Assembly: GCA_030265395.1 (NCBI GenBank)
Contig: JARFYF010000029.1
Location: 25,768,480-25,832,479 of the forward strand
Source: Rhina ancylostomus
Taxonomy: Eukaryota
Direction of reading: 5' to 3'
DNA: 64,000 bases
A model generated the notes under the pieces. That model had not been told where the DNA came from, did not search any database, and saw nothing but the letters and a program-made list of their open reading frames with translations. Positions 14,461 through 26,291 of this stretch are shown here, piece by piece. Positions within the stretch are counted from its first letter, which is position 1, and each line of letters opens with the position of its first letter. The position numbers and the translations under genes were made by a program.

Positions 14461-14721
14461 CTCAACCTCAATCCACTACAGCACTGGAACAGACTGAAGG
14501 GGAAACTGGCAAATTACAAAATAGCTACACAAGTCTGAGTAATGTAAATGGAATCCATAACGGGATCACACATGGGACTTCGGACCACAAAAAGCTCTCT
14601 GCTCCAGTCTCTCAGAAAGTGCACAGAAAACTCCAGTCAAGCCTTTCAGTTACTAGTAATGCCAGCAAAAAAAGCAAATTAAGTTCTACAAATTCTCAGA
14701 AACCAGCATCAACACCAGAAG
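14461..14721 (+). CDS. MDFIC: MDFIC (MyoD family inhibitor domain-containing) internal coding exon, penultimate, phase 1/1
   Basis: Acceptor tttttctctcgttctttcag|14461, donor GAAG|gtatgt at 14721/14722. Open 261-nt exon translating to (x)QPQSTTALEQTEGETGKLQNSYTSLSNVNGIHNGITHGTSDHKKLSAPVSQKVHRKLQSSLSVTSNASKKSKLSSTNSQKPASTPE, matching recalled human MDFIC (KLSAPVSQKMHRKIQSSLSV...KKSK...SSPED). Missing from the ORF track because it has no ATG. Confidence 0.95.
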
Positions 14722-23835: not shown

Positions 23836-24027
23836 TGGGTTTTCAGAATATTTTGCTTTTGTCATAGTTATGTGAATATTTAACTTGTAATTTTGTGTGC
23901 TGCAGTATAATATGGATAGAAAAGATGGGTTGAAAATATGGGAAAAGTTTTGAATAAACATGCTTTTTTTTCAGTGAAGCTGTATTTACTTTATTGACTT
24001 TGTTCAAACCTTTTCTCTCTGCATCAG

Positions 24028-24299
24028 ACTGCTGTGCTTCTTTGGTTCTGGCCTGTCTTTTCTGTCACTGCACCGAGCTCACCCTTGGCCTTCTTCAGGT
24101 TTGCTCCTTCTGTCAGCATGGTGTCTGTGATTCCTGCTGTGGTTGCTGTGGCTGTTGCTGCATGAGCCTTCAGGAGACTCCTGCTGAGGATCTCAACTGT
24201 GCCTGTGACTTCGATTTTACACTCTTTGATTCTTGCTGTGAGGCAACTGAATGTCTGGAAATATGTTTCGAGTGTTCTGAACTCTGCCAGCATGGCTAG
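24028..24299 (+). CDS. Second (alternative) I-mfa-domain-like C-terminal exon within the last MDFIC intron
   Basis: Branch-like ttattgac (~23991-23998), pyrimidine tract ccttttctctct, cag|24028. Phase 1, so G(14721)+AC gives Asp. Encodes DCCASLVLACLFCHCTELTLGLLQVCSFCQHGVCDSCCGCCGCCCMSLQETPAEDLNCACDFDFTLFDSCCEATECLEICFECSELCQHG* (90 aa, 23 Cys) with no stops or frameshifts. Shares LACLFC, NCxCDxD and CCExxxCLEICxEC with the canonical exon. Confidence 0.85.
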
Positions 24300-25224
24300 C
24301 TAAAATCGACCAGGACCAAGGTTTGTGTTGTATATGTGATGTTATGTTAACGTCTTGTTCAATCTTAAACTAGCTGTTGAGGGGAAAACCCTTGAATTTG
24401 ATGCTGAAATGTAGAGTTCAAATCTTTGCTTCATTCAACTTGTATACTAAACCCATTTATCTTCAAATCTGGCATGTCCAAGAGTTGATTTTGGACTGTT
24501 TTTAGCTTAACAGCTATAACTTTCAAAACTGCAATTAACTTGGGTAAATCATGTTTCTGTTCTCCTTTTTAGCAAGGTTATGCAAGTCCTTTGTGTAAAA
24601 TTTCTAGTTGCATGGAAGAAACACAAAATTAGAATGTTAGTACAAATGATCAAGGAACTAGATGATGTAGTGGTTAAAAATGTGACCTTCACATTTACCT
24701 CCCAAATTAAAACTGAGCCCAGACTCCTGAGGTGTATATATGTATCATCTGCAATGTGCAAGGGTCCTCTGTAAAATGAACTCTTGTCTCATGTTTAACC
24801 TTCATGGACCTACAGCCCAATAGCAGCTTAGCACAGTTCGAAAGTATGCATGAAGTTTTGCTGGGGTGAAGTTTTATAAAGTGTCGTTATATTTAAAACA
24901 AAGACAGTTTAAGTTAACATTTTGAAACTTGAGCAAAAGCTTTAAAATATAAATGAAAGGAACACCGGCTGGAATTGAATTTGCAGTTCCTACTTGACTT
25001 TATATCTCTAGTTGGATTTGAGGAATGTTATTGATCTTACTGTGCTGTGGCTGACCAGGAAGTGTTTGTTTCTGACCCTGAAGTACCCAAATCTAAAGCA
25101 TTGTGTTGGCCAGCACAAAAATAATACAACCTAAATTCAGTCATTTAATTTCTTGGAATGAAATTTAGCAGGAATTTAGCAGTCGTGAGTGATTATTGTT
25201 TAATGTGCAGATTTCAATGTAGCC

Positions 25225-25410
25225 AGAAATAAAGTGCAGAATCCTTGAACTAGCAGGTCAGGTAGCACCTGTGGAGGGGGATAAAAAGAATTAATGTTTT
25301 GGATCAATGATGTGTCAAATGAAAGGCTGCTATCAAGAAACAATAACTGCTTCTCTGATCATAGATAGTACCTATCCTGCTGAGTATTTCCAGCATCTGT
25401 ATGGTTTTAT
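25225..25410. repeat. Short imperfect palindromic repeat (Penelope/MER6-like)
   Basis: The left arm agcaggtcaggtagcacctgtgga is roughly complementary to the right arm catagatagtacctatcctgctgagtatttccagca. Confidence 0.6.
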
Positions 25411-26036
25411 CCTTCAATAGTGCTATTTTCTCATCTGCTTCCTATTTAAGGCCATTAATTTCAGTGTTTGCTATAGTTCATCACCAGTCTTATGGCATGC
25501 CATGCTAACTACGATTCTAAAGAACTCCATCGTATGGATTGATTTGAGCCAAATTGTTGTACGTTAATGTACGACCTTTTGGGACTACAAAAGACATTGA
25601 AAATGTTGGGAAAGGCTTTTGAGGTTATTGCTAGTAGTAGTCATAAGTATTTTAAAGCTTGACAGTCCTGCTGTTTTGATTTTTAACACTTCAAACTAAC
25701 AACATGATATTTTTAAAAAAATGAAACAAAAGTGGTGTTTCAGTCTCTATCACCAAGGCAAGATTTTATGTCAATGTGATATTGTCTAGTTTTGTTTCTG
25801 TGGGATGGGTGTGAATGGTGGTGGGGCAGTGTGATGAGGCATGTAGCAAAGAATACTGAGTTTCTTAGCTATTTCTGTCAGATGTTACCTATATTAATGA
25901 TTGCAATAAATGATGAAGTATGGTGTTATGGAATAAAGGATAGTTTGATCTAGCCTTGCTTTAATATGACCTGCTTTTTCTTCCCTTTCTTTCCCATTTT
26001 ATAATCTGTTGGATGGATGGCGATTTACACTCGAAG

Positions 26037-26291
26037 ATGGTTGTGTGCATTGCATTCTTGCCTGCCTATTCTGCGAATTCGTCACCTTTTGCAACATTAT
26101 TCTGGGACAAGCTTCATGCGGTATCTGTACATCTGAAAACACTTGCTGCTGTTGTGGACCAGATGACTTTGGGGATGACTGTAACTGCCCGTGTGACATG
26201 GACTGTGGCATAATGGATGCCTGCTGTGAGTCCTNNNNNNNNNNGCTTGGAAATTTGTATGGAATGCTGTGGGATATGCTTTCCTTCGTGA
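26037..26291 (+). CDS. MDFIC: MDFIC canonical terminal coding exon (I-mfa Cys-rich domain)
   Basis: aag|26037, phase 1. DGCVHCILACLFCEFVTFCNIILGQASCGICTSENTCCCCGPDDFGDDCNCPCDMDCGIMDACCES[N-gap 26235-26244]LEICMECCGICFPS-TGA(26289-26291), nearly identical to the recalled human MDFIC C-terminus. The apparent frameshift is at the 10-N placeholder gap. Confidence 0.96.

Follow-up and report, generated by a model that had tools for sequence, protein, structure and literature searches.

Does a vertebrate MDFIC gene encode more than one C-terminus, and could a second C-terminus act on PIEZO channels as the first does? The question is raised by a 64,000-nucleotide stretch of the ray Rhina ancylostomus (assembly GCA_030265395.1, contig JARFYF010000029.1, positions 25,768,480 to 25,832,479), here called the window, which contains the 3' part of the MDFIC gene. 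Passages of three papers describe MDFI, MDFIC and MDFIC2 as binding one PIEZO site via a palmitoylated terminal helix and slowing inactivation (PMC13080014, PMC10531961, PMC12266723). A first-pass annotation of the window had proposed that an alternative exon rewrites this helix in exact register and that splicing could switch between two PIEZO auxiliary subunits. We find that this exon, termed exon A, is a real and deeply conserved cassette exon that swaps the tail of MDFIC; from its sequence we infer a role at PIEZO and a link to the origin of MDFIC2.

Two C-termini from one MDFIC gene

Exon A lies between a shared upstream coding exon (exon P) and the exon that encodes the canonical tail (exon B; Table 1). 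Beginning at 24028 and preceded by an AG, it completes an Asp codon in frame with exon P, and is read up to a TAG at 24297-24299, after which 21 nucleotides (nt) lead to a GT donor after 24320. The open frame (24030-24296) encodes a complete, Cys-rich I-mfa domain of 89 amino acids (aa) that belongs to the Pfam family MDFI (PF15316; 39.3 bits, E 8.9e-10, curated cut-off 27); exon P scores 59.4 bits against the same family. With the product identical at 88 of 89 positions to isoform X1 of the annotated sawfish MDFIC model, the feature noticed in the first pass is real and not a chance reading frame.

Splicing was followed in contigs from three of the four sequencing runs typed 'RNA?' (X1, X2, X3) and from one DNA run (X5). 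A 349-nt contig of run X1 covers 24026-24317 with two letters differing from the window, one changing Gly38 to Asp and one silent, and jumps 1716 nt with GT..AG ends from exon A to exon B. A second X1 contig represents the skip form, its 25 loose letters before exon B matching window positions 14693-14717 at the end of exon P. Simulated unitigs (k=31) of the inclusion form were 349 nt long with 27 unplaced letters, and those of the skip form had 25 loose letters, in both cases exactly as observed. The X1 contigs contain spliced joints and leave unique intron sequence uncovered, which fits RNA. Exon A is a stop-containing cassette of MDFIC, both its inclusion and its skipping being seen in contigs of one run, and we hold this exon structure with high confidence. 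The first-pass annotation correctly recognized a real alternative exon but, having its own donor at 24320, exon A is a cassette and not a terminal exon. Alternative terminal and mutually exclusive arrangements do not fit the contig that joins exon A to exon B, a separate polyadenylation site in other tissues being possible.

Public protein models from other anamniotes display the same exchange. Five of six same-species pairs (four frogs and the sterlet) are identical over the first 166-168 aa and then continue into tail A or tail B; the exception, from Xenopus laevis, diverges early, and its two members are perhaps homeologues. Exon A is thus part of an MDFIC isoform, joined in frame at canonical splice sites to an N-terminal part in common with the canonical protein. 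Together with the contigs of both forms, the five pairs bear out the proposal that splicing switches between two MDFIC C-termini.

Some features of the splicing evidence weigh against this interpretation. For the junction between exons P and A, the evidence is the length of the contig and the number of unplaced letters, and not the junction letters themselves. All splice evidence derives from one of the three 'RNA?' runs; X1 is labelled 'RNA? (probably DNA)' and its organism code differs from that of the best DNA run, while X2 and X3 leave the exons uncovered, which proves nothing by itself. A run search found no matching run on record as RNA, which is evidence neither way, and contig depth (about 14 for inclusion versus about 27 for skipping) was set aside because contigs cannot show RNA level. 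If exon A were a defunct copy, an independent nested gene or an error of the assembly, and never spliced into MDFIC, the 11 N gaps in the assembly, the automated nature of the public isoform models and the lack of an RNA record for X1 would all be in keeping. However, the DNA run X5 yields a single unbroken contig over 24041-26234 without a letter difference, canonical splice sites are used in the X1 contigs of both forms, and the same-species pairs share their N-terminal part exactly, which makes such an origin most improbable.

Because exon A carries its own stop and is spliced onto exon B, its inclusion turns exon B into 3' untranslated region (UTR). As a rule, nonsense-mediated decay is triggered by stops that precede a junction by over 50-55 nt. 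The stop of exon A is only 21 nt from the junction, closer than this rule sets for a decay-inducing poison exon, so that decay of the inclusion form is unlikely.

The exon is deeply conserved. Of 18 candidates, 15 matched an exon A query, with identities of 59-93% (two rays, one sturgeon, 11 frog proteins and one lungfish), and a profile search matched 27 of 2088 candidates, adding teleost tails. Across the ray, sturgeon, lungfish and frog rows the frame spans 86-89 aa with 36 invariant columns, and the terminal helix is among the best-kept stretches. Catshark, chimaera, coelacanth, three salamanders and two caecilians gave B tails only among the matches listed; as the searches covered protein models, absence of A tails is weak evidence, which nevertheless counts against exon A being universal among anamniotes.

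For amniotes, we hand-sorted the best 120 of 186 matches to the frog A isoform, 67 of which are amniote by name. Of these, 53 end in B, 13 are short or other and one is A-like; an intact exon A tail was found in none of the 67 protein models among the matches listed. The A-like protein, from the razorbill (P0072, P0132), joins exon P to unrelated sequence that ends in a decayed exon A relic, identical to the frog tail at 22 of 27 terminal residues with three Cys lost, and two Logan clusters (P0027, P0205) show similar decay. These patterns suggest that exon A was lost on the amniote line. Compared with the frog tail, the razorbill and Logan relics retain 22/27, 34/45 and 21/24 terminal residues despite the loss of Cys.

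The bird relic could mean constraint at the level of DNA or RNA, as would be expected if exon A were a poison exon whose inclusion, by introducing a premature stop and causing decay, serves only to reduce canonical MDFIC, the encoded peptide being incidental. The layout would suit such a role, since the cassette places an in-frame stop ahead of the last coding exon. On the other hand, the stop falls inside the zone that usually escapes decay, and an open frame of 86-89 aa with so many invariant columns is not expected of a poison exon. We consider this explanation very unlikely.

Several teleost MDFIC-like proteins (P0017, P0019, P0020, P0022-P0024, P0026, P0173, P0198) combine an A-type tail with a divergent N-terminal part and are possibly A-only duplicates; helix position 15 is Cys in many of them. 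In the Tetraodon model CAF98416.1 (P0167), an A-type tail is fused to the coiled-coil and forkhead domains of a FOXP protein; the model is probably a mis-join of neighbouring genes and suggests a FOXP-adjacent teleost copy with an A-type tail. One MDFI cluster at 0.75 in the ESM Atlas is a lead and not support.

The second terminal helix and PIEZO

The last 21 codons of exon A (24234-24296) translate to CCEATECLEICFECSELCQHG, followed by TAG. As described in the first pass, these residues align without gaps to the canonical MDFIC end, here taken from the human protein P0091, and keep six of seven Cys, with Cys15 changed to Ser and Gly16 to Glu. Two parts of that description need qualification: the canonical 'SDC' used for comparison is found in orthologues but is not readable in the window, where exon B carries 10 N (26235-26244), and the helix is indeed replaced in register, but as part of an exchange of the entire 89-aa domain and not alone. 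On a 100-degree helical wheel, Cys 7, 11, 14 and 18 occupy one face and Glu 6, 9, 13 and 16 the other.

We counted residues in 26 A tails, comprising the first 27 proteins minus one mis-ended and one decayed, plus the sawfish, with later cluster members left out. Helix positions 7 and 18, which correspond to MDFIC2 C176 and C187, are Cys in 25/26 and 26/26 of them; passages of one paper report that both Cys are palmitoylated and required in MDFIC2, and that MDFIC2 regulates PIEZO1 (PMC13080014). The acidic residues are kept, as the first-pass annotation had stated, positions 6 and 13 being acidic in all 26 tails; these equal D232 and E239, the acidic positions of mouse MDFIC named in passages of a further study (PMC12626003). 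Ser15-Glu16 is the state of MDFIC2, with Ser in 19/19 and Glu in 17/19 MDFIC2 tails. MDFIC2 uses the PIEZO site of MDFI and MDFIC although its helix has about three Cys, compared with six in exon A and seven in exon B. Since both Cys required in MDFIC2 are kept, binding of the A tail to PIEZO would be likely, and as Ser-Glu is already found in MDFIC2, it should not block binding.

Based on these features, inclusion of exon A would add a second complete Cys-rich C-terminal domain with its own stop, the canonical last exon serving as 3' UTR. The transcript would escape decay, following the rule given above, and be translated; the tail would be palmitoylated, and its helix would dock in the PIEZO pore module as those of MDFIC and MDFIC2 do, with a different strength or gating effect. 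Binding of the A tail to PIEZO appears likely, and a measurably different gating effect, given binding, rather probable. The whole sequence of events, from cassette and escape from decay to palmitoylation and docking with a different effect, is on balance probable.

The first-pass annotation had further argued that a change of the CaaX-like end from CFPS to CQHG could alter lipidation, an argument that finds little support. All 26 A tails have Cys at -4, and 25 end in Ser as CxxS, like the canonical protein, with Gly in 1/26. Moreover, the reported lipid is palmitate, and MDFIC2 ends in C-Y-R/H yet regulates PIEZO1. A literature search on MDFIC farnesylation found nothing relevant.

Other observations speak against a PIEZO role. 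Position 19 (human F244) is Gln, Glu or His in all 26 A tails, so that an aromatic residue is missing there, while it is Phe in 10/10 B tails and Tyr or Phe in 19/19 MDFIC2 tails. This missing aromatic is the sharpest difference of A tails from B and MDFIC2. Human MDFIC F244L, seen in a lymphatic case, is classed as likely pathogenic in one study (PMC10333122). The literature searched holds no statement whether an aromatic at the F244 position is required for PIEZO action. An AlphaFold model of the exon A product has a mean pLDDT of 42.8, with a predicted helix at 72-86 inside a segment below 50, and is too poor for a fold search. Finally, the first 68 domain residues are rewritten too, so that selection may have favoured a function with other partners.

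The A isoform could be a real protein that does not slow PIEZO inactivation, serving other I-mfa-domain partners or acting as a neutral competitor at the PIEZO site. Such a role would fit the absence of a disease-linked aromatic that is present in all 29 B and MDFIC2 tails and the divergence of the whole domain, which has 42% mean identity to B; MDFIC is also described, in passages of one paper, as having other partners such as GATA2 (PMC11014661). Such a role is harder to reconcile with a terminal helix that ranks with the best-preserved portions of the exon and has its Cys and acidic faces intact, and MDFIC2, equally distant from B, still acts on PIEZO. We regard a protein without this effect as unlikely, though as the most serious competitor of an A tail that modulates PIEZO.

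Gene layout around exon A

Table 1. MDFIC features in the window, numbered from its first letter.
Feature	Position	Strand	Description	Basis
Exon P, shared upstream MDFIC coding exon	14461..14721	+	261 nt; AG acceptor, GT donor; ends in phase 1	tblastn of ray MDFIC residues 71-160; splice sites
Exon A, cassette	24028..24320	+	293 nt	splice sites, frame, Pfam, contig, homologues
Terminal 21 codons and stop of exon A	24234..24299	+	counterpart of PIEZO-inserting helix	translation, 100-degree wheel, column counts
Exon B acceptor region	25953..26036	+	81-nt AG-free zone; tract beside AG weak	
Exon B coding part, canonical I-mfa domain ending CFPS	26037..26291	+	stop 26289-26291; acceptor used by both contigs	

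Upstream of 14461, tblastn of ray MDFIC residues 1-70 gave no convincing match within the window; the first coding exons lie outside it, fall into N gaps or escape detection by being too short. At the N gap in exon B, which the contigs of DNA run X5 do not bridge, orthologues imply six bases, and exon B appears frameshifted in the assembly.

The pyrimidine tract of the exon B acceptor begins 61 nt upstream. AG-free runs of at least 80 nt make up 0.75% of those in the window, and that of exon P measures 69 nt. This layout may reflect a distant branch point and regulated choice, and may contribute to the switch. TGCATG, the RBFOX motif, occurs at 24159, 24609 and 24847, in and just 3' of exon A, among 31 copies in the window (0.49 per kb), and offers a weak lead towards neuronal or muscle inclusion. 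A short interspersed repeat at 25250-25410, between exons A and B, attracts many unrelated contigs and has one weak second copy at 45025-45086. Further away, retroelement reverse-transcriptase fragments are present on the minus strand at 1569-2115 (Pfam RVT_1, E 4.6e-07 and 0.0092).

Relation to MDFIC2 and meaning of a second tail

Three relatives place exon A in context. The canonical MDFIC isoform, which uses exon B and is an auxiliary subunit of PIEZO1/2 (PDB 8imz, 8yfc, 9vef), shares gene, N-terminal part and domain family with the A isoform. Its terminal 21 residues are in register with those of exon A, and A tails mostly share its CxxS end, whereas the A domain is a few residues longer, has Ser-Glu for Cys-Gly at 15-16 and no aromatic at 19, and is made by including a stop-containing cassette. 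MDFIC2, the sensory-neuron PIEZO subunit (PDB 9vee), is the best PDB match of exon A and shares with it both required palmitoylated Cys positions and Ser-Glu 15-16; unlike exon A it is a separate gene with its own clade, has Tyr at 19 and ends one residue earlier (C-Y-R/H). MDFI, or I-mfa (PDB 9ved), has the domain family and PIEZO site in common with MDFIC, and its tail is B-type, unlike exon A. Alternative C-terminal I-mf isoforms of MDFI presumably exist, although a literature search for them found none.

A tree of 46 domains (PMSF; no outgroup or MDFI row) separates A-type, B and MDFIC2 tails into three supported groups; their stems measure 0.59, 1.11 and 0.64, respectively, and the MDFIC2 clade has support of 97/97. 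Exon A falls outside that clade and rays have a separate MDFIC2 gene, so that exon A is not an MDFIC2 orthologue. In the PMSF tree and four of five quick trees, A is nearer to MDFIC2, and in one quick tree otherwise. Raw mean identity is equal (0.42 for A-B, 0.41 for A-MDFIC2), becoming 0.32 versus 0.39 when Cys are excluded, and of 74 majority-residue columns A and MDFIC2 share 13, including Ser-Glu 15-16, A and B 11, and B and MDFIC2 7. Profile scores alone do not place exon A closer to MDFIC2, since the gap is due to composition correction (42.9 + 24.6 bias versus 23.2 + 48.6); composition bias probably also explains why the profile search returned MDFIC2 without B tails.

Exon B of the window scores 57.9 bits on MDFI and 16.9 on MDFIC2 (65-aa query), exon A 9.9 on MDFI and 33.2 on MDFIC2; exon B is thus more like the tail of another gene than like its tandem neighbour. 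The simplest reading of these scores would be a separation of A from B that predates that of MDFI from MDFIC; rapid divergence of exon A following a later duplication is a possible alternative. MDFIC and MDFI lie in FOXP2-MDFIC and FOXP4-MDFI blocks. Passages of two papers place MDFIC2 next to foxp1 and mitf in fish (PMC8294118, PMC6173838), and another paper mentions MDFIC2 merely as a gene near transposon fossils (PMC9004415). Tentatively, and with slightly less than even confidence, we propose that the gene before duplication had both tails as a splice switch, of which MDFI would have kept only B, MDFIC2 only A, and MDFIC both until exon A decayed in amniotes, while exon A may have become fixed again in a teleost duplicate next to a FOXP gene. 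If true, the PIEZO subunits of fish and frogs would include a fourth one under the control of splicing, and MDFIC2 would be a former splice isoform that became a gene of its own.

The A isoform already exists in automated NCBI models, often as isoform X1. We found no published description of a tail-swapping MDFIC isoform, though alignments in the supplements of the original MDFIC-PIEZO1 and lymphatic-disease papers might show it; the passages and one supplement searched of the two MDFIC2 papers contain no such isoform. In the passages of the literature at hand, PIEZO auxiliary subunits are treated as three genes with one tail each, to which exon A adds a fourth natural tail that is splice-switchable and present in Xenopus too. 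Exon A shares features with the nerve-cell paralogue MDFIC2 and likely provides a splice-switchable second way to tune PIEZO in ray, sturgeon and frogs. Since the A tail keeps the Cys and acidic faces but not the disease-linked aromatic, it can be used as a naturally occurring probe of the helix features that govern binding and inactivation. Exon A further suggests an origin for MDFIC2 that can be tested, and is a case of exon loss in the amniote lineage.
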